Origin: a virus
Virus genome (UHGV): UHGV-0008871
Strand: one strand, 5' to 3'
DNA length: 47,120 bases
Position numbers and translations under genes: made by a program. How positions within the stretch are numbered: position 1 is the first letter of the stretch; every line of letters begins with the position of its first letter. The notes under the pieces were generated by a model. That model did no database searches and was not told where the DNA came from. It saw only the letters and a list, made by a program, of their open reading frames with translations. This document shows positions 15,503-44,226 of this stretch, one piece after another.

Positions 15503-15577
15503 GGGTCAGTCGTATAAAGGTCATTACGGAAGGCTGTTAACCTTCTTATCGTGGTTCGAGTCCACGCTGTCCCGCCA
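15503..15577 (+). tRNA. Phage-encoded tRNA, anticodon GUU (Asn) by manual fold; slightly non-canonical
   Basis: Hand-folded cloverleaf: acceptor gggtcag/ctgtccc (one mismatch), anticodon stem gaagg/ccttc, loop ctGTTaa, T-arm cgtgg-ttcgagt-ccacg, CCA encoded; D-stem only 3 bp. Confidence 0.5.
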
Positions 15578-15582
15578 AACAT

Positions 15583-15658
15583 GCTGTTTTAGCTCCAATG
15601 GTAGAGCGGTCGCCTTGTAAGCGAATGGGTAGCGGTTCAAGTCCGTTAAACAGCACCA
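15583..15658 (+). tRNA. Phage-encoded tRNA, anticodon UGU (Thr) by manual fold
   Basis: Perfect 7-bp acceptor gctgttt/aaacagc, D-stem gctc/gagc, anticodon loop ctTGTaa, T-loop ttcaagt, CCA encoded. Confidence 0.65.
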
Positions 15659-20010: not shown

Positions 20011-21426
20011 ATGAACGAAGATGATATCGCAATCGGCAGTTGCTCGCCGGAGCTGATCACGCTCCTGGACAGCGATGACATTCAGCCGGGTATGTCGGCT
20101 GGCTATCAGACCTGCAAAACGATTTACCTCTTCCACCCGTTGGGCGGGAAAATGGTAGATCGCCCGATCAAGATGGCGATGAACGAGTCGCGCACGGTTC
20201 ACATTTCGCAGGCGTATGGCATTGAGCAGCGTCTCCGCGATGCATTTGAGCGGGAGTGGAAAGCACTGGGCGCCGATAAGCACATCGCTAATGCGGCGCG
20301 CATCTCTCGCATTTACGGTGTTTCGGCGATCGCAATGCTGGTTGATAACCAGGAGCCGTCCTCTGCGGTGGACTACCGCACGCTGTATAAGCACAACGTG
20401 ACATTCAACATTCTCGACCCGCTGAACACTGCCGGAAGCATCGTCCTGAACCAGGATCCGAACGCGCAGGACTTTCAGAAGGTCGACGGGATCAGAGTGG
20501 CGGGCAAGCCGTATCACAAATCCCGCTGTGTTGTGCAACAGAACGAGGACCCGATTTATCTGGCCTATAACTCTGCTGCCTTTGGCTTTACCGGTCGCAG
20601 CGTTTACCAGCGCGCTCTGTTCCCGCTGAAATCCTTCATCCAGACCATGCGCACCGATGACATGGTTTCCGTGAAGGGTGGCTTGCTGGTAACGAAGATT
20701 CAGGGACCTAGCTCAGTCGTCAACAACATGATGCAAAAGCTCAGCGGCATCAAACGAATGATGCTGAAGCGAGGGAAGACAGGCGAAGTCCTGCAGATCG
20801 GCGCAAATGACAGCATCGAATCCATCGACCTGAGCAACCTGGAAAAGCCGCTCGACTCCTCCCGGAATCACATTCTGGAGAATATCGCTGCGGCAGCTGA
20901 CATGCCGGCTATCATTCTGAACTCGGAAACATTCGCCCAGGGCTTCGGCGAGGGGACGGAAGACGCTCGATCTGTTGCAGTCTACATCGACAACATCCGC
21001 GAGTGGCTTGAGCCGCTGTATGACTATTTCATCCGTATTTGCCAGTATCGCGCCTGGAGCATTGAGTTTTTCAATTCTCTGCGTGCTGACTTCCCGGAGC
21101 TTAAAAACACGTACAGCCTGTATTTCTCCTCATGGATTAACAACTTCGAATATCGCTGGCCGTCATCCCTGAAAGAGCCGGAAAGCGAAAAAGTGAAGGT
21201 CGACGAAATCCGCTTTAAGGCCATCGTCAGCATGCTGGAAGTCCTTCTCCCGCAGGTCAACACGGATGATGAGAACCGCGCGCTTCTTATCGAGTGGGCG
21301 CAGACCAACGCGAACGCTAACGAAAGCCTGTTCCCGCAGCGACTTGATCTCGATATCGACTCGTTAAAGGCTAACCGGCCTGAACAGCCACGGGATGAAG
21401 AGCCCGGCGGCGGGATGATGCTATGA
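20011..21426 (+). CDS. Portal protein (putative), 471 aa
   Basis: Gene following the large terminase, size typical of portal proteins; acidic C-terminus. Confidence 0.65.
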   Translation: MNEDDIAIGSCSPELITLLDSDDIQPGMSAGYQTCKTIYLFHPLGGKMVDRPIKMAMNESRTVHISQAYGIEQRLRDAFEREWKALGADKHIANAARISRIYGVSAIAMLVDNQEPSSAVDYRTLYKHNVTFNILDPLNTAGSIVLNQDPNAQDFQKVDGIRVAGKPYHKSRCVVQQNEDPIYLAYNSAAFGFTGRSVYQRALFPLKSFIQTMRTDDMVSVKGGLLVTKIQGPSSVVNNMMQKLSGIKRMMLKRGKTGEVLQIGANDSIESIDLSNLEKPLDSSRNHILENIAAAADMPAIILNSETFAQGFGEGTEDARSVAVYIDNIREWLEPLYDYFIRICQYRAWSIEFFNSLRADFPELKNTYSLYFSSWINNFEYRWPSSLKEPESEKVKVDEIRFKAIVSMLEVLLPQVNTDDENRALLIEWAQTNANANESLFPQRLDLDIDSLKANRPEQPRDEEPGGGMML

Positions 21427-22256: not shown

Positions 22257-23870
22257 GTGGCTATTTTTGGCAGCGGGATAATGTTCCGTCAGGGGAAGTT
22301 CGTCTTCCTGATCCAGCGCTCGGATGATGGCACATGGTGCCAGCCGGGCGGGACGATAGAGCCGGGAGAGTTAGCCATAGACGCCGCACGGCGCGAGGTG
22401 CTGGAGGAAACAGGCTATCAGTACGATGGCCCGCTGACGCCGCACAGCGTACATGGTGACTACCTGACCTACCGCGCCGACGTGCCGGAGCAATTCGAAG
22501 CGAAGATAAACGACGAATCGCTGGCCGCCGGATGGTTCCATATTGAAGATCTGCCAAAGCCGCTTCATCAGCCATTCGCTGAAATGCTGGCGCAGCAGGC
22601 GCTCAACGAAACCGACGTGGCCGCGCTCATCGCTGACGGAACGCTCAGCAGCCCGCAATATTTTTACAACATGTGGATGTTCGCCATCCGGGTGACCGGA
22701 ACAGGGGTTACCTGGCGATCTGCAGATCAGGAGATGACGTTCCGTAACCCGGACGACTATCTCACCCCTGAATTTCTCCAGCGGGTAGCTGGCGTACCAC
22801 TTATCTGGCTTCACCCCGAAAAAAGAACACTTGATAGCGACGAGTTCTCAAAGCGCGTTATTGGCACCCTGACAAATGCCTGGGTTGCCGATAAGGGCGA
22901 AGTGTGGGCCGTTGCGCGTGTGTACGACGCCGAAGCTGCTGAAATTATGGCAACAAGGCAATTAAGCACCTCGCCAACTGTGAAGTTCTCAGAGGTTGCT
23001 CAATCAATCATTGTCGACGGTCAGCCTCTACTGGTGGAGCCATCCCCCGAGCTGCTCGACCACGTTGCAATTTGTGAACAGGGCGTGTGGGACAAGCTCC
23101 TTGCCCCTACCGGTGTTAAATCTGATTCCATTCCTGAAGAGGCTGAAAAGATGGACGAGGAAAAAATCGTAGCGCTGATTAATAAGGCGATCGATGCGCG
23201 TTTGGCTAAGGCCGACGAAGAGAAGGAAGCGAAAGCCAAGGCTGACGCCGAAGAGGCCGCCAAGAAAGAAAAGGCTGACGCAGAAGACAAAGAAGCGGAA
23301 GAGGCGAAAGCTAAAGCCGACGCGGAAGAGAAAGCCGCGAAGGAAAAAGCTGATGCTGAAGCCAAAGAAAAGGCGGATGCCGAAGAGGCTGAGAAAATGG
23401 CAAAAGAAAAAGCCGACTCTCAAATCCTCCAGGAAATTGCTGAGCTTCGCTCCCGCATTCCTACCGAACTGAGCGACGAAGAGCGCAACGAAGTTGCAGA
23501 AGCGCAGGTGAAAGCCGATAGCGTCTTCTCCAGCTTTGGCAAACGCGCCCCGATCCCGCTGTCCGGTGAAAAACCGATGGCGTATCGCCGCCGTCTGATG
23601 ATTCAACTGCAGGAGCATTCTCCGGACTACAAAGCCGTCGATCTCTCTGCCATCGCTGATTCTCAACTGCTGAGCACTGCCGAAAAGCATATCTACGCTG
23701 ATGCGCAGAAGGCGGCCAGCCTGTCAGTTGGTCCCGGTATGCTGCGCGAGATTAAGCGCGCCGATGCAACCGGTCGCCAGATCAGCACCTTTGAAGGCGA
23801 TCCCGCCGTCACCTGGGCGCCGTTCCAGTCTGGCAAGCGTCAGGTCACCAGTTTTAACAACCAGGCTTAA
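22257..23870 (+). CDS. Head scaffold-like protein with N-terminal Nudix hydrolase domain and internal Lys/Ala/Glu/Asp-rich repeat region (537 aa)
   Basis: Canonical Nudix box [23 protein letters not shown] (GX5EX7REUXEEXGU) at residues ~30-53; KADAEE-type repeats at residues ~315-380; position between head morphogenesis and capsid genes. Confidence 0.6.
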
Positions 23871-30597: not shown

Positions 30598-32481
30598 ATG
30601 CAAGCCCGGCGCAGTACCGGCAGCGCTACCTCCTCGCCGCGCTCAAAGAAAGAGGTTTCTTCAATGGTAGCTAAGTCGATCGTCGACATTGACGTAAATG
30701 ACGACAAGTTTGTCGCGTTTATGGAAAAGTTTCGCGAATACCAGAGCGCGCTGGATGATTTACCGGAAGCCTGGCGGGTAGCTGCCGTTGGTATTGGCGA
30801 AAGCAGCAAGCAGACCGAAAAAGCCAAAGGTGAGGCGAAGGAGTTAGGCGCGGAGTTTAATGCCGTGGCCGAGGCCATCCTGACCATCAACAGCGGTATC
30901 GATCGGCTCAATACCAACCTGGAAGACTCGAAGAAAAAGCAGGACGAATTCAACAAAAGCACCCGATCTGCGAAGGGCTTCCTCAGCGATGCGACGAAAG
31001 ACGCTAAATCGCTGGCAGGGCATATCAAGGAAGCGACGGCCAGCCTTCTGTCCTGGGGTGGTATTGTCGGGATATTTACCGGCGTCCTGGGCGTTGGCGG
31101 CCTGTTTGGCATCAACCGGCTGGCGGCCACCACCGGCGCCCAGCGGTTTACCTCTCTCGGGCTCGGGACGAGCATCGGCGCACTTGATTCCACCGCCATA
31201 AACTACCAGAAAGCGCTGGGTAATCCGGCGGGTACGCTGGGCGCTATCCGCGATTCGCAAATGGACCTGTCGAAGCGCTGGACGTTTCAGGCGATGGGGA
31301 TTAACAACCCCGACCAGGACCCGGCCAAACTGCTCCCGCAGATGATCCGTAATGCGCGCGATATTTTCGTGCAGAGCGGCAGCACGCTGCAGGGCGCACA
31401 GGCGCACGGCCTGACAAACTTCTTTACGCTGGACGACCTGAACCGCTTCAAAAACATGAGCGATGAGGAGATCACCGCCATGGAGAAGCGCGCGCAGCAG
31501 GATGCGCGTATGTTGCAAATTACCGACCAGCAGGCGCGTCAGTGGCAGGATTTTAACGTCCAGCTCGATTACAGCAGCCAGAGCATCAGAAACACGTTTG
31601 TGCGCGGCCTGGGGCCTCTCACACCTCAACTGAGAAAACTGTCTGATGCGCTGTCAGGCGCGATCGATACCGTCCTGAAATCCCCCGAACTCGGCAAGTG
31701 GATTGATGCGCTTGCCGGCGGCATTGAGCGATTCGGTAATTACCTCGCTTCTCCTGAATTTTCCACAGATGTAAGCAACTTTATGGACAAAGTAGAGAAA
31801 ATGGGAAATCTAATTGGCAAGGTTATTGATTGGGTAACAGGGAAAGCGAGTATCTCTACTGCGGATATATCATCCGGGTCAACGATGTTGAGCCAAAGCA
31901 CCATCATCGATCCGAAAACGGGAAAATCCTATACTCCTGGAAGCAATGATGACCCGCATGTATGGGGCTGGCTCAAGGGTGTTAGGCGCTTCTTTGAAGA
32001 TGGAACCGTTAAAGCTGTTGATCCCACACCTGCAAATACTTCCGACAGAAACAGGACTATTGCAGATCGATTTAATAATCCGGGAAATCTGCGGTGGGCT
32101 GAAGGATACAGCAGCGAGAATACGAGAAGCGGTAAATTTGCCGTCTTCCCAACGCTGGATGAAGGCGTACTGGCGGCGACAAAGCAACTTCAAATGTATG
32201 GCGCTAAAGGAATAAATACGGTAGGAGATATTGCAAGAAAATGGGCTCCTCCTAAGGAAAATAATACCGCTGAGTATATTCGGCATGTGGTTAAAACTAC
32301 TGGATTTAATGAGAATCAGAAACTGAATCTCAATGATCCTCAGGTTATCGCGAAACTCATTTCTGCTATATCTCAAAAAGAAGGGGCTGGTAGCAGAGTT
32401 TCTGAGAGCACAGTCATTCAGATCTATAACAATACCGGTGGGAATGCAGTGGTAACTTCAGCGCAATTGGGGGCGAGGTAA
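30598..32481 (+). CDS. Tape measure protein (putative) with lower-GC C-terminal domain; alternative start at 30664
   Basis: Long Ala/Gly-rich helical protein with a Gly-rich hydrophobic segment (GGIVGIFTGVLGVGGLFG); C-terminal ~200 aa are clearly AT-richer. Confidence 0.6.
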   Translation: MQARRSTGSATSSPRSKKEVSSMVAKSIVDIDVNDDKFVAFMEKFREYQSALDDLPEAWRVAAVGIGESSKQTEKAKGEAKELGAEFNAVAEAILTINSGIDRLNTNLEDSKKKQDEFNKSTRSAKGFLSDATKDAKSLAGHIKEATASLLSWGGIVGIFTGVLGVGGLFGINRLAATTGAQRFTSLGLGTSIGALDSTAINYQKALGNPAGTLGAIRDSQMDLSKRWTFQAMGINNPDQDPAKLLPQMIRNARDIFVQSGSTLQGAQAHGLTNFFTLDDLNRFKNMSDEEITAMEKRAQQDARMLQITDQQARQWQDFNVQLDYSSQSIRNTFVRGLGPLTPQLRKLSDALSGAIDTVLKSPELGKWIDALAGGIERFGNYLASPEFSTDVSNFMDKVEKMGNLIGKVIDWVTGKASISTADISSGSTMLSQSTIIDPKTGKSYTPGSNDDPHVWGWLKGVRRFFEDGTVKAVDPTPANTSDRNRTIADRFNNPGNLRWAEGYSSENTRSGKFAVFPTLDEGVLAATKQLQMYGAKGINTVGDIARKWAPPKENNTAEYIRHVVKTTGFNENQKLNLNDPQVIAKLISAISQKEGAGSRVSESTVIQIYNNTGGNAVVTSAQLGAR

Positions 32482-35213: not shown

Positions 35214-35542
35214 GAACCTATGGCCGAAACTCTGAGGGGAAGTGGGTCCTGGTGGAAACCGACGAATATGGGTTTAATGACTCGGTGTATTTGACGACCC
35301 TGATCCAGAATCTGAAACTGGCGCCGCAGGAGTCGCCATTTTATGCGAACAACGGAATCCCGGCCGCCGGGTCGGTGATCCAGCAAATCCTGCCGACGTA
35401 TTACGTAAACCGTATTCAGAAACAGTTCAGCCAGTATTTTTCCTCGCTGCAGATTGCGCTGATCAGCGACGACCCGCCTGTTTATAACATCTCGGCAATC
35501 ACAAATGCAGGTTCAAAAATAATTACACAGGTGGCCGTATGA
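35210..35542 (+). CDS. Putative baseplate wedge protein (110 aa)
   Basis: Small ORF immediately before the J-like gene. Confidence 0.4.
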   Translation: MRTYGRNSEGKWVLVETDEYGFNDSVYLTTLIQNLKLAPQESPFYANNGIPAAGSVIQQILPTYYVNRIQKQFSQYFSSLQIALISDDPPVYNISAITNAGSKIITQVAV

Positions 35543-36957
35543 GCGATTTACCAGTCAGCTATACGTCAGCAGGCCCGGTTCCTCTGACGCCGGAAGAGCT
35601 ACGAGCACAGCTCGTTTCTCAGGCAATTGCGCTATCTCCGGGACTCACAACTGATTTGCCTGGATCTCTGATTGAGGACGTGGCCAGTACCGATGTCGGC
35701 GCGCTCATCGTTTGTGATCAAGCAAGGGTTGACCTGATTAACTCGGTGGGGCCACTAAAGGCTAACCTGGCCATGCTGGAGCTTCTCGCACAGCAGGCTG
35801 GTATTCCTGGGCAGAAAACGGCTGGCACAACAACAGTCCCGGTTCAGTTTTCCGGCCCCGCGGGATTTGTTATCCCACAGGGGTTTATTGTTTCTGATGG
35901 GACCTATACCTATTCAGTCAGTGATGCGACGATTATCTCGTCGTCTGGAGTATCTGCCAGCGTATCATGCGAGGGAACGGAGACCGGGACCTGGGCGGTG
36001 CCGGTAAATACGGTTAACCAGATCATATCCAGTCTACCGTCTGACGTCACCATCACCTGCACCAACCCGATCGCCGGCACTCCGGGTGCTGACCCGGAAA
36101 CGAACTATCAGTTTCGTGATCGCGTATGGCAGGCGCAGATGGCCACCGTTCAGGGATATCCTGGATTTATCCGGCAATATCTCACCAGCCTTGATAACGT
36201 GCAGGCGCGCCTGGTTTCTGTCATTCAGGACGGGGATAAATGGATAGTCATGTGTGCCGGCGGTGATATTTACGATATTGCTGGCGCGCTCTATAAGTCT
36301 GCGGGGGATATCAGCCGGCTGAAAGGGTGTTCACTGAACGTAACGGGGATCACGAATGCAAATCCTGGTGTCGTCAGCACAGACCTGACTCATGGTTACA
36401 CTGACGGCCAGGTTATCCGGATCACTGGCGTTACCGGGATGACGGGTATTAATGACGTCCCTCTGACCGTGACGGTACTGTCTCCTCACACGTTTTCCAT
36501 CGGGATTGACACCACGTCATCCGGGACCTGGGGAGGCGGCGGCGAGGTGACACCGAACGTCAGAAACAATACCGTGACGGTGAATGACTGGCCTGATAAC
36601 TACGTGATCCCGTTCGTGACGCCATTGCTGCAGCGGGTCACTGTGACGTATCAGTGGGGGACAGAAAGTGTTAATTACCTGACAGATGCCACGGTCGCCT
36701 CTCTGGTCTCGGCGCCTACGATTCAGTATGTGAACGGCATATTCGCCGGGAAACCGCTGAACGTTAACAACCTGAAAGACGCATTCTTACAGGCGATTAA
36801 CTCGACAATCGACATGGGGCTGATCAGCACTTTAAACGTCGTGGTCACCATCAATGGTGTGATAACACCACCGGATGCCGGGACGAATATCATCAGCGGC
36901 GATAAGTTCAGTTATTTTTATATCGCGTCGGATGGCGTGATCGTAACAGGGGCGTAG
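35539..36957 (+). CDS. Baseplate J-like protein (472 aa)
   Basis: Size and N-terminal pattern typical of baseplate J family; position before the fibre genes. Confidence 0.55.
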   Translation: MSDLPVSYTSAGPVPLTPEELRAQLVSQAIALSPGLTTDLPGSLIEDVASTDVGALIVCDQARVDLINSVGPLKANLAMLELLAQQAGIPGQKTAGTTTVPVQFSGPAGFVIPQGFIVSDGTYTYSVSDATIISSSGVSASVSCEGTETGTWAVPVNTVNQIISSLPSDVTITCTNPIAGTPGADPETNYQFRDRVWQAQMATVQGYPGFIRQYLTSLDNVQARLVSVIQDGDKWIVMCAGGDIYDIAGALYKSAGDISRLKGCSLNVTGITNANPGVVSTDLTHGYTDGQVIRITGVTGMTGINDVPLTVTVLSPHTFSIGIDTTSSGTWGGGGEVTPNVRNNTVTVNDWPDNYVIPFVTPLLQRVTVTYQWGTESVNYLTDATVASLVSAPTIQYVNGIFAGKPLNVNNLKDAFLQAINSTIDMGLISTLNVVVTINGVITPPDAGTNIISGDKFSYFYIASDGVIVTGA

Positions 36958-36958
36958 C

Positions 36959-37663
36959 ATGCTGGACGATATCATCCGGTCGTATATGTATACGCAATAC
37001 AACGACGATGAAAATCTGCGGGCGTTTTTTACTGCGTATAACTCGATGGCGCAGGGCATTTATGACTGGATGGTTAATGCCAACCTGCCGATTTTCATCG
37101 GTGACTACAACACCGGAGATCAGCTCCGGTGGATTGCCCATGGCATCTATGGCGTTTTGCCGCCGGTGATTTCCAGCAGCGATCAGCAGGAGATAGGCCC
37201 ATATAACACCTTCGAATTTAACCAGCTGGCATTCAATGAGTACCGGGTGATTGACCAGTCAAACCAGGTTGTTGTCTCTGATGACCTTTTTAAGCGGATC
37301 ATGACCTGGAATTTTTACAAAGGTGACGGCTTCTATTTCTCTATCCCATGGATAAAGCGGCGTATTCTGCGGTTCCTTTTGGGAGTGAATGGCACCGACA
37401 TTCTCAACGACCAGCGATGGAGTATCTCGATCCAGTTTGTGGATGGCGGTATCGTGATTTCCATCTATAAAGGGCGCCGCATGTTCACGCGGAGCGCTAT
37501 CTACAATGCATCGGCCTATAACTCCAGGAAGTACAACCAGAAGGACACGGCCTTTGTGATCACTGAGGATTTCGAGTTCGCCATTTTTTTCAAGCAGGCC
37601 ATGGATAGCGGCCTGCTGCACATGCCGTTTTACCAGTCAGTCACGGTTGAGATATTTGATTAG
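36959..37663 (+). CDS. Putative baseplate/tail-fibre attachment protein (234 aa)
   Basis: Last + strand structural ORF before the tail fibre. Confidence 0.4.
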   Translation: MLDDIIRSYMYTQYNDDENLRAFFTAYNSMAQGIYDWMVNANLPIFIGDYNTGDQLRWIAHGIYGVLPPVISSSDQQEIGPYNTFEFNQLAFNEYRVIDQSNQVVVSDDLFKRIMTWNFYKGDGFYFSIPWIKRRILRFLLGVNGTDILNDQRWSISIQFVDGGIVISIYKGRRMFTRSAIYNASAYNSRKYNQKDTAFVITEDFEFAIFFKQAMDSGLLHMPFYQSVTVEIFD

Positions 37664-37915
37664 GTTTTTATCTCGATTATCTATTGTTATATACAGATGT
37701 GATTTAACGCTCTGACAAATTATATACAGCACAACTATTGATAAAAACAAAATGGATGACATTTTTATCATATCTATTGGCGGCATTCCTTGCTGAAAAA
37801 GAAATCCAAATAAAATAATAAGCAAGGCGCACGAAAGGAGTATTAATAAAGTAGATAGAGTTCCTAAAAGTATTTTTAAAATAGCAATAGAAGCATTATT
37901 CATAATATTCACCAT
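37637..37915 (-). CDS. Small two-TM membrane protein encoded by an AT-rich reverse-oriented insert in the tail operon (92 aa)
   Basis: Only minus-strand gene within ~25 kb of + strand structural genes; local GC far below flanks; two hydrophobic helices (ILKILLGTLSTLLILLSCALLIILFGFLF and SSILFLSIVVLYIICQSV). Confidence 0.6.
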   Translation of the reverse strand: MVNIMNNASIAILKILLGTLSTLLILLSCALLIILFGFLFQQGMPPIDMIKMSSILFLSIVVLYIICQSVKSHLYITIDNRDKNLIKYLNRD

Positions 37916-37964
37916 TTAAAAGGCCGCGCTTGCGGTTTTTTTATTGCCTAATCCCGGAGGATAC

Positions 37965-40900
37965 ATGGCACTAACCCTTTTGGCTACAAACAACGCAGAA
38001 AGCACGCTGGCTTCTGCTATCAGCGCAACCGACACGTCGCTGATCGTTAGCGCTGGAACTGGTGCCGAGTTCCCTGATGCTGTGGCAGGCGAGAGTTACT
38101 TTAAGCTCACTCTCACCGATGCCGCCACCGGCTCACAGGTTGAGATCGTGAACGTGACAGCTAAGGCCGGAGACATCTTCACGATTGAACGTGCGCAAGA
38201 AGGAACGCTGGCGCGTGCGTGGGCGGCCAACGACATGGTTGCCAACATGATGACGGCGGATACGCTGAACATTATCGCTCAATATGCCCAGCAGGCAGCT
38301 GCATCAGCAGATCAGGCAATTGAGGCTGCTAATAACGCCTCTGAATACGCAAAGAACAAATACACATTCTATAAGACTGCCAGCGATCCTGATGGCACCA
38401 TTGCAGGGTTGGCAGCAACTACTGACGGCCAGTCGTTCTGGGTAGCTCAGGGGCCAGATGCGCTTTCTGCTGCATGGCAGTATCAAAACAATGCTGGCGT
38501 GGCCGTGTTGCAGGCCAAGCAGCCAGGGACAGCGGCCATAACAGGGACAATCCGCGAGTTTCCGACGCTGGCTGCGGCGCAGGCAGACGCAGCTGCGGGT
38601 AATATACCGGTGGGATCAACTGCTTATTATCGCAGCTCAGATGACAATAATCTTTCAATTGAGGTTATCAATACCGCTGGTACGTTGGTAGCAACCGGAA
38701 GAAAAATTCCAGCGTATTCCGCTTTGCGTAGAGGCAACATTTTATTCGACGCATTTAATGAATATTCCTCAAGCCTTTTAACATTCGCTAACTGGGATTG
38801 GTATAAAGGCGCTACGCCAACATTTTCTACTACTGATGTTAATTTGCCGCTTCCAACACCTGTTATTCAAGCTTCTGGTGTAACATCGTTTGATAAATAT
38901 TACGATGTGTCAAAATTACAGGTAAAACCAGGAGACACTTTAGCTTTCTCTGTTTTGGTATGGTTCGAGAACGCTGGAGGCAAGTTACAGATTTATTGGC
39001 TTGATTCAGCAGGAGTAACCATCACTACAGGGGAGGCCTCTCCACTGGTTGCTGGTATATCTTCGCCGGTTGTGGTCATTGCTGTGCCATCTGGCGCATC
39101 ATCCATACGAATTCGGGTGCAAAACACTGTGTCAGGGGCGTTCAAAATCGGTGCCTATGCCGCAGCTATTGGTGATGTTACTCCTGAATTCACAAGGTCT
39201 TTCCCTTCAAAAGCGTACCAGGAGGCATTGGGTACCCCTGATAACCTCGTGTACGATCCTTTTGGCGAGATGCTTTCCGTTCGCCCTAAGCAAGGACTCC
39301 CAGCAGGCGTGGTTGACGCCATGAGTTACGCAGGAACATTGATTCAGAACAGCGCAAATTCACCATGGGGTAAGACCGGGATCCAAAACACGTCAGGAGT
39401 TGGTGCTGATCGTATTATTTCTCTCAGTTCGATGGGGGTTAAGCCGGGAGACACAATCACTGTCCGTCTGGCTGCATGGTTCGCGTCAACGGGTGGCACG
39501 TTTCAGGTTTTCTGTCGTAATGCATCCGGAGTACTTTCTTCGGCAACTATTGCCGCATCAGCATCCGGCTTTAATGATGGAAGTACCACGCTGACAATAC
39601 CAGCATCAACGACATACCTTACGCTTCGCGCATCAGGGGCTATGGTCAAGGAGCTGGTTGCCATAGGTGTAGCTTTCGGACGATCTCGCCCTGAGTTTAT
39701 TTACGGTAGCCTTCCAGCAGAGTATTCAGGATACCAGCGCCAGCAGATTAACCTGTGGCCTGATCCCTGGTATCGCCGCTACGAGTGCGGGGAAACGTGT
39801 ATTGATGGTTGGGGTCCTGCTCAAGTAGCAGGGGTTTCACTACCAGCATATGTTGCGGATTATTCTGGCAGCCCGTTTCTTAGGAAAAAATCTCTGATTA
39901 TCCCAGTAGGTGGTGGTCAGACGGATATTAACATTTCAGCAAAGCGGCTTGGACTGCGTGCTGGAGATTCGCTGACAGTAGCGCTGGGTGTGGTATCGTC
40001 TCAGGCAATCAACGTGGCAGCATATTTCCGGACGGCTAGCGGGACTGTTATTAGTGACAGTTCGTCTCAGTTGTTCCAGTTCCCAACCCAGCAATATCAG
40101 ACTCTGGTTCGCACAATAGCTATCACCCAGACTATTGTTGATACGGCTGGATATCTGCAAATCCGCCTTATGAATGGGCAGACTGTTGGCGCTGCAGGTG
40201 TTTATGTTGTTGCCAGGGGGCTCTTTGTTGGGAATGGCTCTCCTGTACTGAGTGATGATACGTACCGACAGGATGTCGATTACACAACTTCCAGAGCATT
40301 CACGTTAAATCAGGATTCACTCAGAGAGACACATAAGCGCCTGATGAACAGGCGGCTTTCTCAGTCAGCAACACTGGTAACAGCGCACATTGGCGATAGC
40401 TGGACTCACCTGTGGAACCGATGGAGCGGAATTTTTGCCGGAAAAATGCAGGCTGACTATGGCAGTGCAGGTATCGGCTATATCGGATTTGGCTATCCGT
40501 CTGAGGCGGGTTTCGGGCAGTATAACGGCAATATACTTGGTCAGATAACTTTGACCAAAACAGGAACATGGACGCCGACATATGCGGCAGCACAGAGCGC
40601 AGATATTTGTAGCGTCTCGTCTTCTGATACCACCGCTACTTTCAGGGCGAACGGTATACCGGCAAATGCATCGTCAGTCCGCCTTTTTGCTAAACCTCAG
40701 GGGAGTGTTAAATACAGCACAGATGGTGGAGTTAACTGGACAACTATCGACCTGAGCACGTTCACTGACCTTGCGGTTGTCAGCCTCACGGTACCGGCAA
40801 CAGCTTTCAATATCTGGTTCAGTCCGGTATCAGGAACCGTTGAACTGTACGGTCTGGATGTGCAGACCGCGACAGATGGTGTCCGGTCTCACAAGCTGGG

Positions 40901-41354
40901 TGCGACGGGGAGTTCTGCTCAACAATGGGCGGCGCAGGTTACCAGCGCAACATGGAAAGCAGCATTCACCGCGCTGGCCCCCAATCTGGTGACAATTCTG
41001 CATGGGACCAATGACCAGACATCATCCCGTGATCCATCCGCGTTTGCTGCCGATATTCAGACGATAATCACAGCAGTTCGCACTGCATGCCCGTTGGCTG
41101 ATGTTCTGGTGATCATGCCATGTGAAAACCAGAGGAATAACAATGTGGCAATGGCGGCGTATGCGTCTGTTGTACGGGATGTTTGTGCGCTAAACAGGGT
41201 GGCTTATCACAATCTCCAGATTGACTACGGAGACAAGCCATCTGATTACGCATCGACATCTCCACGCAACTGGTTCAATGCTGATGGAATCCATCCTGAC
41301 CCTGCAACTGGAGGTGGGCTGCCGATCGTTTCTGCTGTTTTGAAGTTAATGTAA
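37965..41354 (+). CDS. Long tail fibre: conserved N-terminal anchor domain, three internal ~110-aa repeats, C-terminal SGNH/GDSL-type esterase-like domain (1129 aa from Met at 37965)
   Basis: RBS ggagg before ATG 37965; SGNH blocks HIGDSWT, HGTND and DGIHPD in the last ~330 aa; N-terminus homologous to the second fibre. Confidence 0.75.
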   Translation: MALTLLATNNAESTLASAISATDTSLIVSAGTGAEFPDAVAGESYFKLTLTDAATGSQVEIVNVTAKAGDIFTIERAQEGTLARAWAANDMVANMMTADTLNIIAQYAQQAAASADQAIEAANNASEYAKNKYTFYKTASDPDGTIAGLAATTDGQSFWVAQGPDALSAAWQYQNNAGVAVLQAKQPGTAAITGTIREFPTLAAAQADAAAGNIPVGSTAYYRSSDDNNLSIEVINTAGTLVATGRKIPAYSALRRGNILFDAFNEYSSSLLTFANWDWYKGATPTFSTTDVNLPLPTPVIQASGVTSFDKYYDVSKLQVKPGDTLAFSVLVWFENAGGKLQIYWLDSAGVTITTGEASPLVAGISSPVVVIAVPSGASSIRIRVQNTVSGAFKIGAYAAAIGDVTPEFTRSFPSKAYQEALGTPDNLVYDPFGEMLSVRPKQGLPAGVVDAMSYAGTLIQNSANSPWGKTGIQNTSGVGADRIISLSSMGVKPGDTITVRLAAWFASTGGTFQVFCRNASGVLSSATIAASASGFNDGSTTLTIPASTTYLTLRASGAMVKELVAIGVAFGRSRPEFIYGSLPAEYSGYQRQQINLWPDPWYRRYECGETCIDGWGPAQVAGVSLPAYVADYSGSPFLRKKSLIIPVGGGQTDINISAKRLGLRAGDSLTVALGVVSSQAINVAAYFRTASGTVISDSSSQLFQFPTQQYQTLVRTIAITQTIVDTAGYLQIRLMNGQTVGAAGVYVVARGLFVGNGSPVLSDDTYRQDVDYTTSRAFTLNQDSLRETHKRLMNRRLSQSATLVTAHIGDSWTHLWNRWSGIFAGKMQADYGSAGIGYIGFGYPSEAGFGQYNGNILGQITLTKTGTWTPTYAAAQSADICSVSSSDTTATFRANGIPANASSVRLFAKPQGSVKYSTDGGVNWTTIDLSTFTDLAVVSLTVPATAFNIWFSPVSGTVELYGLDVQTATDGVRSHKLGATGSSAQQWAAQVTSATWKAAFTALAPNLVTILHGTNDQTSSRDPSAFAADIQTIITAVRTACPLADVLVIMPCENQRNNNVAMAAYASVVRDVCALNRVAYHNLQIDYGDKPSDYASTSPRNWFNADGIHPDPATGGGLPIVSAVLKLM

Positions 41355-41387
41355 AACTCCTACATTGATCTTCCCTCACAACAATAA

Positions 41388-41407
41388 TACTGTGTGTTTG
41401 TACAGTA
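41388..41407 (+). promoter_or_regulatory. LexA (SOS) box taCTGTgtgtttgtACAGta within the promoter of the downstream two-gene cassette
   Basis: Perfect CTGT-N8-ACAG palindrome with TA flanks, 18 nt upstream of a gggaggg RBS; overlaps a TATTAT -10-like hexamer. Confidence 0.7.
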
Positions 41408-41425
41408 TTATTGGGAGGGCAGATC

Positions 41426-41665
41426 ATGCTTCGACAGTCAGACATCGCAGCGGCGTTCCGCGAGTCGGTATTGCGCAGTTCCAAGGGGTTCCAGTACCTT
41501 CACACCCGCGACTTCGTTACCGCGCTGCGCCGGCGCGGCATCCATTTTTCCGAGGTGGAGGCGAACTCCTGGATCGCACGCGAGCAAACGTATTTCGTCG
41601 ACAAAACGGCAGAGCATAGTGAAAACTGCCTGTGGATGATGGCCAACATGGGGAGGATTCTGTAA
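41426..41665 (+). CDS. Hypothetical SOS-regulated protein (79 aa)
   Basis: Strong RBS gggaggg 7 nt upstream; LexA box in the promoter; TAATG coupling to the next gene. Confidence 0.55.
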   Translation: MLRQSDIAAAFRESVLRSSKGFQYLHTRDFVTALRRRGIHFSEVEANSWIAREQTYFVDKTAEHSENCLWMMANMGRIL

Positions 41666-41982
41666 TGGGCTTTCCTTCACCCGCGACGGATTACGTTGAG
41701 CAGCGACTGTCTGTCAACTCGATCTGCAATGTTGGGCCTAATACGTTGCTCTTCGAACGGTCTGGCGGTTACGTTGTGCTGGATATCTCCCTGAAGCCAA
41801 AGCAGGGTAGCCAACTACTTATACAGCACGGCGGCGGGACGGAGCTTGCCACGCTGAGAGGAAGGTCGCTGATTACTGAAGATGGTGAAGCGATCGAGGG
41901 CGAAGCCCTGGACGATGTTACTGTCATCGGCGTCGTGACGTTTACTATCTGCGATGTTCGTTCCGATAATTCTATTATTTAA
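41665..41982 (+). CDS. UmuD'-like protein lacking a recognisable serine-protease motif (105 aa)
   Basis: N-terminus MGFPSPATDYVEQRLSVN matches the UmuD/MucA post-cleavage N-terminus (GFPSPAADYVEQRIDLN); QLLIQH and VIGVV also echo UmuD; no GDSM motif. Confidence 0.55.
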   Translation: MGFPSPATDYVEQRLSVNSICNVGPNTLLFERSGGYVVLDISLKPKQGSQLLIQHGGGTELATLRGRSLITEDGEAIEGEALDDVTVIGVVTFTICDVRSDNSII

Positions 41983-41993
41983 CTGGGGTATAT

Positions 41994-43025
41994 ATGGCGC
42001 TGAAGCTATTAGCCAATAATAACGCAAAGAGTGTTCTCGCTGCGGGTATTAGCGCGTCCGCTACCGTTATTACCGTGGGTACTGGAGCGGGGTCTTTATT
42101 CCCGTCCCCTGTATCAGGGCAGAGTTATTTCAAATTAACGATAACCGACGCGGCCACGAAAACAATTTCTGAAATTATGCACGTCACGTCTGTATCCGGT
42201 GACGTGATGACAGTAATTCGTGGTCAGGAAGGAACTACGGCACGTGTATGGTCAACGAATGACATTGTTGCGAATTTAATGACCGCCGGGTCTTTATTAT
42301 CTTTCCTGCAGATCAGCAATAACCTGTCAGAAATTAAAGATGCCGGTGATGATGCGGTAAATGAAGCCCGTTATAACCTCGGAATATCTGATTCCTCTGG
42401 TTTTGTCGGGCGTTCTCTTGGCGCACCAAAAACTTTCTATACAAATGGAACTTATACTCGCTCACCGCTGGCCCGTTATGCAAAAGTAACGTTGGTCGGA
42501 GGTGGCGGCGGCGGTGGCGGGTGCCAGGCATCTAATAACACCGAAACCTTTTCCGGTGCCGGCGGCGGCGCGGGTGCGACCATTATCGTATGGGTTGACC
42601 TGTCTGCTGCCAGTTCTTACGCGATTACTGTCGGCAAGGGTGGTAAGGGCGGAGTTGGCGCAGTAAGTGGTGCGGATGGTGGTGCTACCTCGTTTGCCAG
42701 CCTGTTCTCAGCTCCTGGCGGGAAAGGCGGCGTGAAGTCAGGCGTGTCCAATACCGCCGGCGGCGCCGGAGGTACGGCGGCGACCGGAGATATCAGGATC
42801 AACGGTGGTACCGGCTCAGATGGACAGACAGGCTCAAGCCTTCTGACGGGCAACGGCGGGGCGTCGTATTTTGGCGGCGGTGGCCGGGCGGGTTCTCAGG
42901 CCGGTATTGCTGGCGCAGCTCCCGGATCCGGTGGTGGTGGCGCGTATGACCTTGGGTTTACCGGTACGGCATTTACCGGTGGTGATGGTGCTACTGGCAT
43001 GGCGATCGTGGAAGAATTCGCGTAA
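41994..43025 (+). CDS. Second tail fibre: same N-terminal anchor domain as the long fibre, Gly-rich C-terminal domain (343 aa)
   Basis: N-terminal ~100 aa alignable by eye with fibre 1; C-terminal half is Gly-rich (GGGGGGG, GGxGG repeats). Confidence 0.7.
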   Translation: MALKLLANNNAKSVLAAGISASATVITVGTGAGSLFPSPVSGQSYFKLTITDAATKTISEIMHVTSVSGDVMTVIRGQEGTTARVWSTNDIVANLMTAGSLLSFLQISNNLSEIKDAGDDAVNEARYNLGISDSSGFVGRSLGAPKTFYTNGTYTRSPLARYAKVTLVGGGGGGGGCQASNNTETFSGAGGGAGATIIVWVDLSAASSYAITVGKGGKGGVGAVSGADGGATSFASLFSAPGGKGGVKSGVSNTAGGAGGTAATGDIRINGGTGSDGQTGSSLLTGNGGASYFGGGGRAGSQAGIAGAAPGSGGGGAYDLGFTGTAFTGGDGATGMAIVEEFA

Positions 43026-43029
43026 TGGC

Positions 43030-44226
43030 TTACACTCCTGCACGACCATCGATGTAATCAGCCCACCATTGCATCATTTCTCTGCGCTTATCGAGATACT
43101 GAGCATGGTTGTAAATTCCACGTACAGATCCGCCGTTGGCATGTGCCAGCTGCACTTCAATAGCGTCAGCAGGCCATTCGTGCTCGTTCATAATCGTGCT
43201 GAATTCATGCCTGAATCCGTGACCGCTTTCCAGACCTTCATAGCCGATTTGTTTGATCACAAGCAATACCGCGTTCTCGCAGATTGGCTTCTTCTTATCG
43301 TTGCGCCCGGCAAAAACAAACTCTGAGACTGGTTTGGTGATTGAGCTTAGCGTAGTGAGAAGTTCAACCACCTGGTCTGACATCGGGACCACATGAATTT
43401 TGCGTCCCTTCATCACACTGGCGTCGATGGTGATAATCCTGTTTTCAAAATCGACGTTCTTCCATAGCATGGAACGAAGCTCTTTTGTTCTTAGGGCTGT
43501 GTAGCGTAAAACTTTGGTCGCAATGAGCGATACGATACTTCCTGAAAATGTTGCAAGTGCTTTGTTGAATGCCGGGATCTGGTCGGCAGGTAAAAACGGG
43601 AAGTTCTTCTTGCGGTATCCCTTCATGGCGTCAGCAAGGTCAGGTGCCGGGTTATATTTAGCCCTACCAGTGACAATAGCGTAACGGAAAACCTCGCCGC
43701 ATCTTCTGCGGGCTTTGTTGGCTCGCTCCATTGCACCGCGATCTTCAAATCTGCGGATTACTTCCAGCAGTTGCATCGGCTCAATATCCTGAATTTCAAG
43801 GCCGCCGATGATAGGTAAAATGTCGTCATCAAACATTTTTGCAAGTTCAGTCGCATACCCTACTGACCATACTTGCTTCTTGTGCTCGTACCATTCCTTG
43901 TAAATCGCACTAAAGGAATTGTTGTTAGACGAAGCCTTTTTCGCCTTTACCGGATCGATGCCAACCGAGATGTCTTTCCTCGCAGTCCATGCCTTATCCC
44001 TTGCTTCCTGCAAAGTCATAAGCGGATATTTTCCGACGGTCAGGATTTTCTCCTTACCGTCAATCTTGTAGCGAAGCTGCCATACCTTTTTCCCTGACAC
44101 AGGGACATAAAGGTACAGGCCATTACCATCGAGAAGGCGGTATGGTTTTTCTTTCGGCTTTGCTGCTTCAATCTGCTTAACGGTGAGCATGGGTAAAAAT
44201 CCGGTGGGTAAAATTATTTTATCCAC
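43030..44226 (-). CDS. intS: Tyrosine integrase, P4/IntS-type (398 aa; alternative start at 44190)
   Basis: Adjacent to the tRNA-Arg gene; catalytic HGFRH…Y region; matches my recollection of E. coli IntS (CPS-53/KplE1). Confidence 0.85.
   Translation of the reverse strand: MDKIILPTGFLPMLTVKQIEAAKPKEKPYRLLDGNGLYLYVPVSGKKVWQLRYKIDGKEKILTVGKYPLMTLQEARDKAWTARKDISVGIDPVKAKKASSNNNSFSAIYKEWYEHKKQVWSVGYATELAKMFDDDILPIIGGLEIQDIEPMQLLEVIRRFEDRGAMERANKARRRCGEVFRYAIVTGRAKYNPAPDLADAMKGYRKKNFPFLPADQIPAFNKALATFSGSIVSLIATKVLRYTALRTKELRSMLWKNVDFENRIITIDASVMKGRKIHVVPMSDQVVELLTTLSSITKPVSEFVFAGRNDKKKPICENAVLLVIKQIGYEGLESGHGFRHEFSTIMNEHEWPADAIEVQLAHANGGSVRGIYNHAQYLDKRREMMQWWADYIDGRAGV

Follow-up and report, generated by a model that had tools for sequence, protein, structure and literature searches.

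The DNA analysed here, the virus genome UHGV-0008871, is a stretch of 47,120 nucleotides (hereafter the window) and represents a myovirus-type prophage of Escherichia coli located at the tRNA-Arg(CCU)/intS site. One end is marked by intS beside tRNA-Arg(CCU) and the opposite end by torI. The early region of the prophage is lambdoid, with N, CII, CIII, Kil and Nin genes and a lambda-type holin, and the late region is of the contractile-tail kind, with genes for a tail sheath, a baseplate hub and a baseplate-J-like wedge protein. Downstream of these, directly after the baseplate genes, lies a long tail-fibre gene, which is the subject of the present work. Analysed in silico, its product consists of an N-terminal anchor, a shaft, three tandem repeats and a C-terminal module that we predict to be a two-domain O-acetylesterase of the Ape1 type carrying a complete set of putative catalytic residues. 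The features of the gene are as follows.

37965..41354, plus strand: complete tail-fibre gene, from the listing of open reading frames, the phrog_38670 match and its intact state in E. coli MEI008.
37965..38324, plus strand: predicted virion-anchor domain, residues 1-120, from the match to the N-terminus of 8jov.
38325..38711, plus strand: shaft or linker, residues 121-249, common to many temperate-phage fibres.
38712..39239, plus strand: repeat R1, residues 250-425, modelled as a beta-sandwich like that of a carbohydrate-binding module (CBM).
39243..39740, plus strand: repeat R2, residues 427-592, from the R1-R2 alignment and matches to R1-like domains.
39741..40259, plus strand: repeat R3, residues 593-765, a putative divergent third copy with two insertions, from a profile score.
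40293..41351, plus strand: predicted two-domain Ape1-type O-acetylesterase module, residues 777-1129.
40398..40400, plus strand: codon of Ser812, the predicted nucleophile, in block I (GDSW).
40467..40874, plus strand: inserted beta-sandwich, ~residues 835-970, with approximate boundaries taken from the model strands and the Ape1 alignment.
40908..40910, plus strand: codon of Gly982 in block II, predicted oxyanion hole.
41010..41012, plus strand: codon of Asn1016 in block III (GTND), predicted oxyanion hole.
41283..41294, plus strand: codons of Asp1107 to His1110 in block V (DGIH), the remainder of the predicted triad.

The open reading frame (ORF) runs without interruption from 37944 to 41354 (+) and is listed with 1136 aa counted from a TTG codon; the first ATG, at 37965, gives a product of 1129 aa, to which the in-frame TTG at 37944 adds 7 aa. 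An initial annotation of the window had described a fibre of 1129 aa, which is the product read from ATG 37965. Its start at 38900 falls inside this ORF but does not open it, the ORF beginning ~940 bases further upstream. In PHROG, residues 93-1129 matched the family phrog_38670 'tail fiber protein' with 1887 bits. Along its whole length, the fibre DNA shares 99.9% identity with E. coli MEI008, in which the ORF is likewise intact and uninterrupted. When we searched 5426 complete E. coli genomes, at least part of the fibre DNA was found in 64 of them, chromosomal in every case, and 15 genomes carry at least 80% of it.

The RefSeq product name of the gene is 'SGNH/GDSL hydrolase family protein', and in MEI008 (locus L001, 12001-15411) RefSeq (PGAP) records a 'partial, missing C-terminus' pseudogene together with a separate 303-aa coding sequence, which leaves ~1.7 kb without annotation despite the uninterrupted ORF. 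A partial pseudogene and a separate coding sequence are also recorded for the fibre in E. coli strain 10 (locus L002, 5570-9028). Probably because RefSeq splits the gene in this way, protein databases hold mostly fragments of the fibre. A scan of 37500-43100 for promoters and terminators returned no more sites than shuffled sequence.

The C-terminal part of the fibre carries the conserved blocks of the SGNH/GDSL superfamily. Blocks I (HIGDSWT, 40386-40406), III (HGTND, 41001-41015) and V (DGIHPD, 41283-41300) were found exactly as the initial annotation had quoted them, and block II, which it had not listed, is LGATGSS at 40896-40916. The Pfam family PF13472 scored 53.4 bits against a cut-off of 32.9 (E=6e-14). 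This match covers only residues 973-1114, because an insertion of ~135 aa parts block I from block II; the spacing from Ser812 to Gly982 is 170 residues. An AlphaFold2 model of residues 764-1129 (366 aa) was obtained with a predicted local distance difference test score (pLDDT) of 93.4 and a predicted template modelling score of 0.91. The model has the SGNH alpha/beta/alpha fold, with a run of beta strands between model residues ~99 and 205, so the structure prediction that had been suggested as a check returned the expected fold with high confidence. By its blocks I, II, III and V, its profile score above the cut-off and its fold, the module falls within the SGNH/GDSL superfamily.

Conservation of the catalytic positions was read from an alignment of 38 sequences, consisting of the fibre and 37 homologues of 23-50% identity. 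Ser812 is Ser in 37 of the 38 sequences, with a gap in the remaining one, and Gly982 is Gly in 37. Asn1016 is invariant (38/38), while Asp1107 is Asp in 37/38 and His1110 is His in 38/38. The catalytic-residue mapping that had also been proposed was thereby completed, with the Ser, Gly, Asn and Asp-His positions kept almost throughout and aligned residue by residue to the blocks of Neisseria Ape. Judged from the sequence, the catalytic apparatus (S812, G982, N1016, D1107/H1110) is complete, and its conservation would be the pattern expected of purifying selection on catalysis. The same positions bear on the idea of a catalytically silent lectin, in which the SGNH fold would serve only as a scaffold that binds a glycan, acetylated or not. 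Some phage receptor-binding proteins do carry inactivated enzyme folds. Here, however, all five catalytic and oxyanion positions are intact and kept in 37-38 sequences across that range of identity, and we find a silent lectin quite improbable.

For the structural classification of the module, the best Foldseek matches of the C-terminal model were Ape1 of Neisseria meningitidis and Campylobacter jejuni (TM 0.77-0.80, E=1.6e-19), and these matches span the whole module, beyond the catalytic core. The relationship was also detected by sequence: profile A1 matched 4k3u with E=2.2e-22, profile positions 192-529 aligning to chain residues 40-366 and covering both domains. Blocks I, II, III and V of Ape1 align with those of the fibre, IGDSW being paired with IGDSH and GTND with GTNE, together with GxxG and DxxH. 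In Ape, the catalytic triad Ser80/Asp366/His369 was established by mutagenesis, residues 104-221 form a CBM35-like domain lying between Ser80 and Gly236, and Ape homologues align with CAZy CE3 (Ape review). In Campylobacter Ape1, the loops of the CBM35 domain make part of the active cleft and are required for full activity. The structures of Ape1/Ape from N. meningitidis and N. gonorrhoeae (4K3U, 4K7J) and from C. jejuni (8GKD, 8GLD) share with the fibre module the same build, an SGNH domain with an inserted CBM35-like sandwich. Neither the inserted sandwich nor the Ape1 relationship was contained in the initial annotation.

The two proteins also differ. Ape1 is a free periplasmic enzyme acting on the 6-O-acetyl-N-acetylmuramic acid (6-O-acetyl-MurNAc) of the cell's own wall, whereas the fibre module has no separate gene and forms the C-terminal end of a phage fibre, and it is only 12-16% identical to Ape1 in structural alignments. 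From the two-domain homology and the model, we therefore describe the fibre C-terminus as a predicted Ape1-type two-domain O-acetylesterase, that is, as a homologue of the Ape1 fold family that on present alignments is not classed as a peptidoglycan esterase.

Since the closest structures, and the only solved homologues detectable by sequence, are Ape1 peptidoglycan O-acetylesterases, we considered whether the module could de-O-acetylate peptidoglycan at 6-O-acetyl-MurNAc, as a virion cell-wall enzyme during DNA injection. Its position argues otherwise, as three CBM-like domains precede it and it forms the distal end of a 1129-aa fibre, not part of a tail tip or tape measure, and a wall-acting candidate, a transglycosylase-like domain, is encoded by a separate tail gene (30598-32481). 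Moreover, peptidoglycan O-acetylation is not known from E. coli or Klebsiella. On the grounds of position, the separate gene and wall chemistry, we rejected this role as extremely unlikely. The fold itself does not fix the substrate, because Ape is described as relatively promiscuous (Ape review), and capsule is the target of one phage tailspike with an Ape-like domain, as described below. We also considered a role as lipase or acyl-esterase, with lipid A, phospholipid or some other acyl ester as substrate, or as a PatB/OatA-type acyltransferase; we judged such a role very unlikely and rejected it.

At the opposite end of the fibre, the anchor was matched over residues 8-117 to the N-terminus of 8jov, a solved 'putative tail fiber protein' (E=5.7e-9). 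Fibres of Klebsiella, Pectobacterium and lambdoid phages share 82-88% identity with residues 126-250, and residues 1-250 are 92.8% identical to the fibre of Klebsiella phage vB_Kpn_Chronis. The N-terminal similarities to other phage fibres end past ~residue 250, which by these comparisons is a mosaic junction of the typical kind.

Between the shaft and the esterase lie the three tandem repeats. The motif VKPGDT occurs at 38922-38939 and again at 39438-39455, and LRAGDS at 39954-39971, in the places where repeat motifs had been reported. The number of three copies was also correct, but the unit is ~170 aa long and not ~110 aa; the ~110-aa stretches described initially are the better-conserved C-terminal cores of the longer units. 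Unit boundaries were taken from alignment A3, made from trimmed segments, in which each unit has N-hydrophobic-x-x-D-P at its start and G-x-x-x-P-E/V-F/L at its end. Alignment A2, in which MAFFT had combined the repeats with full-length homologues, was discarded because it placed R2 under the R2 of near-identical proteins and not under R1.

By Smith-Waterman comparison, R1 and R2 scored 126 against 32.9 +/- 5.2 in 300 shuffles (z=18). R2 and R3 gave z=4.2 against shuffles, and R1 against R3 alone was not significant (z=1.1). A profile made from R1, R2 and 27 R1-like homologues scored R3 at 23.8 bits, compared with a maximum of 8.5 bits among 500 R3 shuffles, and with the same profile neither the N-terminal 249 aa of the fibre nor its esterase part rose above the shuffle scores. 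R2 also aligned with the R1-like domain found in other fibres (E of about 1e-12). From these scores R1 and R2 are clearly homologous, and R3 can be read as a divergent but significant third copy. A BLAST search of the fibre against itself returned the identity match only, and a homologue search with R2 and R3 alone returned only near-identical proteins, with no detectable relatives outside the lineage. Structure prediction of the repeats covered R1, which was modelled as a beta-sandwich with CBMs and phage fibre domains as its nearest neighbours. On this model, R1 would be a CBM-like (galactose-binding-domain-like) jelly-roll beta-sandwich, which suggests that repeats R1-R3 may bind sugar.

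Fibres with SGNH domains have been described in other phages. Klebsiella prophage SGNH tail fibres include 164_08-KL2 and 174_38-KL55 (PLoS Biol 2026, PMC13123978), and two such fibres hydrolyse p-nitrophenyl acetate (PMC13123978). The esterases KPS2894 and KPS7939 also come from Klebsiella prophages (Viruses 2025, PMC12115436). The Klebsiella prophage proteins are likewise fibres of Enterobacteriaceae temperate phages with a C-terminal SGNH domain, whereas the present copy is found in E. coli and has a different N-terminal anchor. None of the motifs of our fibre was found in the supplements of PMC13123978, and neither its identity with the assayed fibres nor an Ape1-like subtype of those fibres could be established. 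Such proteins are classed as 'capsule surface remodellers' in a 2026 preprint, and a K1-phage paper on BUCT541 relatives contains nothing on the esterase fibre.

Two further phage proteins offer comparisons from outside Klebsiella prophages. In gp41 of the Acinetobacter phage Aristophanes, an SGNH domain was modelled on Ape (4K7J), and the protein de-O-acetylates the K26 capsule, as determined by nuclear magnetic resonance (PMC8471582). It resembles the fibre in being a virion receptor-binding protein with an Ape-modelled SGNH domain, but it is the tailspike of a lytic podovirus and no tandem CBM-like repeats are reported for it; by tblastn, Aristophanes showed no similarity to the fibre esterase at E<=1e-3. 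The tailspike gp63.1 of E. coli phage G7C (4QNL) is, as cited in PMC13123978, an SGNH esterase that deacetylates O-antigen. Being likewise a receptor-binding protein of an E. coli phage and equipped with such an esterase, it is by analogy probably a functional model for how the fibre would work, and a test for specific homology between the two esterases was negative. SGNH fibres, including Ape1-like ones, have already been described and shown to be active, and the fibre of the window is an uncharacterised example.

Like phage esterase receptor-binding proteins, the fibre combines a predicted attachment domain and a gene position among tail and baseplate genes with an intact distal SGNH domain. 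We consider it likely that it is an active O-acetylesterase fibre directed at an O-acetylated surface glycan. This agrees with the initial suggestion of an esterase mounted on a fibre, and we infer the function from the fold, the conserved residues, the gene position, the anchor, the R1 model and the phage precedents.

In the mechanism we propose, the N-terminal domain would plug a presumably trimeric fibre into the baseplate, the shaft would follow, and both together would keep the CBM-like domains and the esterase at a distance from the baseplate. The three beta-sandwich domains would hold the fibre on the surface polysaccharide, the inserted sandwich of the esterase would bind the polysaccharide together with them, and the esterase would hydrolyse O-acetyl esters of the bound polysaccharide during adsorption. 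For the chemistry, Ser812 would act as nucleophile and His1110/Asp1107 as general base pair, with Gly982 and Asn1016 forming the oxyanion hole, and, by comparison with Campylobacter Ape1, the inserted sandwich may wall the substrate cleft on one side. Attachment would be reversible, so that the virion could reach the outer membrane by working its way across the O-antigen or capsule layer. Through binding and deacetylation, we propose, the fibre would be among the main factors that set the host range.

Several observations weigh against an esterase fibre of this kind. The nearest esterase homologues from isolated phages are only 36-40% identical, and the closest solved relatives work on peptidoglycan and not on O-antigen or capsule. 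The R1 model reaches only moderate confidence (pLDDT 73) and is poor over its first 45 residues. Furthermore, no Pfam CBM family was found in the repeats, residues 250-765 giving only chance-level matches at E<=1.

The same catalytic evidence would serve a receptor-destroying role, which differs from the adsorption role in purpose and not in chemistry. The stripping of acetyl groups would then free progeny from debris or lysogens, or remove the receptor of other phages, as in the superinfection exclusion that had been put forward initially. Receptor-destroying virion esterases are well established, among them the haemagglutinin-esterases found in influenza C virus and in coronaviruses. However, the enzyme of the fibre is borne by the virion and is not expected to be expressed from a repressed prophage, and therefore it could not protect a lysogen. 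In addition, among the prophage genes that RefSeq names in the closest genome there is no O-acetyltransferase or other surface-glycan-modifying gene, a weak negative as many genes there are labelled 'hypothetical protein'. Superinfection exclusion that protects the lysogen thus found no support and was rejected on these two points, and a receptor-destroying role in general seems unlikely to us.

Returning to the adsorption esterase, we examined how widely the module is spread. Over residues 248-1129, the fibre shares 98% identity with a prophage protein of K. pneumoniae, the true ORF of which encodes 1090 aa with a different, coiled-coil-like N-terminus. The prophage that carries this homologue is related, also of myovirus type, and occupies the same site in the chromosome (yfdC/mlaA side). 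A lambdoid siphovirus-type prophage contains the fibre DNA from query base 384 onward in E. coli strain 10 and in thirteen further genomes; copies of the strain-10 type follow gpJ and lom, and RefSeq shows a lambda Stf-type N-terminal fragment directly upstream of them. Partial, highly similar copies of the fibre occur in Raoultella. In a distinct but related fibre family of E. coli and Klebsiella, a single R1-like domain (~58% identical) is joined by two other repeated domains, and the SGNH domain is compact and of a different kind.

The esterase family as a whole comprises 238 distant cluster representatives at E<=1e-30. Among the best 150 of these 238, the esterase is C-terminal in nearly all, and most are long multi-domain proteins of ~500-1300 aa. 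The isolated phages with homologues, none of them more than 40% identical, are Klebsiella siphoviruses, Proteus phage Mydo, and phages of Staphylococcus, Gordonia and Arthrobacter, where the esterase forms part of tail fibre or minor tail proteins.

The occurrence of ~90-99% identical receptor-binding modules, comprising the three CBM-like repeats and the esterase, in prophage proteins from E. coli, K. pneumoniae and Raoultella makes it conceivable that the substrate is an O-acetylated glycan common to Enterobacteriaceae and not a strain-specific O- or K-antigen; candidates might be enterobacterial common antigen and colanic acid. The N-acetylglucosamine (GlcNAc) of enterobacterial common antigen is 6-O-acetylated, and 6-O-acetyl-GlcNAc is chemically close to the 6-O-acetyl-MurNAc of Ape1. 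From the sequence comparisons at hand, we give such a common substrate only a slim chance. Should it hold, no earlier phage fibre would have been shown to modify a common antigen of this kind enzymatically, and the module would provide a route to a cross-genus host range.

Downstream of the esterase fibre, a second fibre gene (41994-43025, +) encodes 343 aa with a glycine-rich C-terminal domain (PF21722). The N-terminus of the esterase fibre is 50% identical over 125 aa to that of the second fibre. Because the two have the same N-terminal anchor, the phage seems, on sequence, to carry two fibres, alternative or co-resident, that share one anchor. In the related Klebsiella prophage, two such glycine-rich genes flank the esterase fibre.

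Two small overlapping genes lie right after the esterase fibre, at 41426-41665 (+) and 41665-41982 (+). The former encodes 79 aa and belongs to phrog_3893, with no function assigned in PHROG. The latter encodes a UmuD'-like protein of 105 aa beginning GFPSPATDYVEQR. GFPSPATDYVEQR is presumably where UmuD begins after self-cleavage, and by eye the 105-aa protein seems to be without the catalytic Ser and Lys. The gene pair accompanies the C-terminal module of the fibre in three prophage contexts, namely the window, the E. coli lambdoid prophage (L002 9100-9656) and the Klebsiella prophage (L004 8721-9277). The 105-aa gene is present in 116 phage records, and in the one record compared, Klebsiella phage RCIP0114, it lies ~300 bases downstream of an SGNH fibre.

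On the upstream side, the 300-base gap from the last baseplate-region gene to the fibre is occupied by an unannotated antisense ORF (37637-37915, -) of 92 aa with a very hydrophobic product. It had no match in Pfam or PHROG and could be a small membrane-protein moron or a chance ORF. Pfam likewise returned nothing for the N-terminal 250 aa of the fibre, the 234-aa upstream gene and the two small downstream genes. The baseplate-J-like wedge protein (35539-36957, +) has an inserted domain at residues 275-338 that matches PF16190, the ubiquitin-activating enzyme E1 FCCH domain (E=4e-14), after which RefSeq names the whole protein.

Elsewhere in the window, the head-morphogenesis block includes a 471-aa 'anti-CBASS protein Acb1 family protein' (20011-21426, +; L003 20928-22343) and a 537-aa 'NUDIX hydrolase' (22257-23870, +; L003 23174-24787) according to RefSeq. 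Both sit just past the large terminase, where portal and head proteins are expected, and the labels look odd there. Two prophage tRNA genes, tRNA-Asn(GTT) and tRNA-Thr(TGT), lie at 15503-15658 (+) upstream of the lysis genes.

The fibre is of modest importance, as a case from E. coli in which the domains are cleanly mapped and the catalytic residues named. Recent work ranks deacetylating fibres among the commonest enzymatic receptor-binding domains of Klebsiella prophages. The module was found on at least three different N-termini and on two tail types, and it is nearly identical across genera; it is therefore a convenient test case for how esterase modules move and how they recognize their targets. 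The substrate would matter for host-range prediction and for phage and vaccine work that relies on O-acetyl epitopes.

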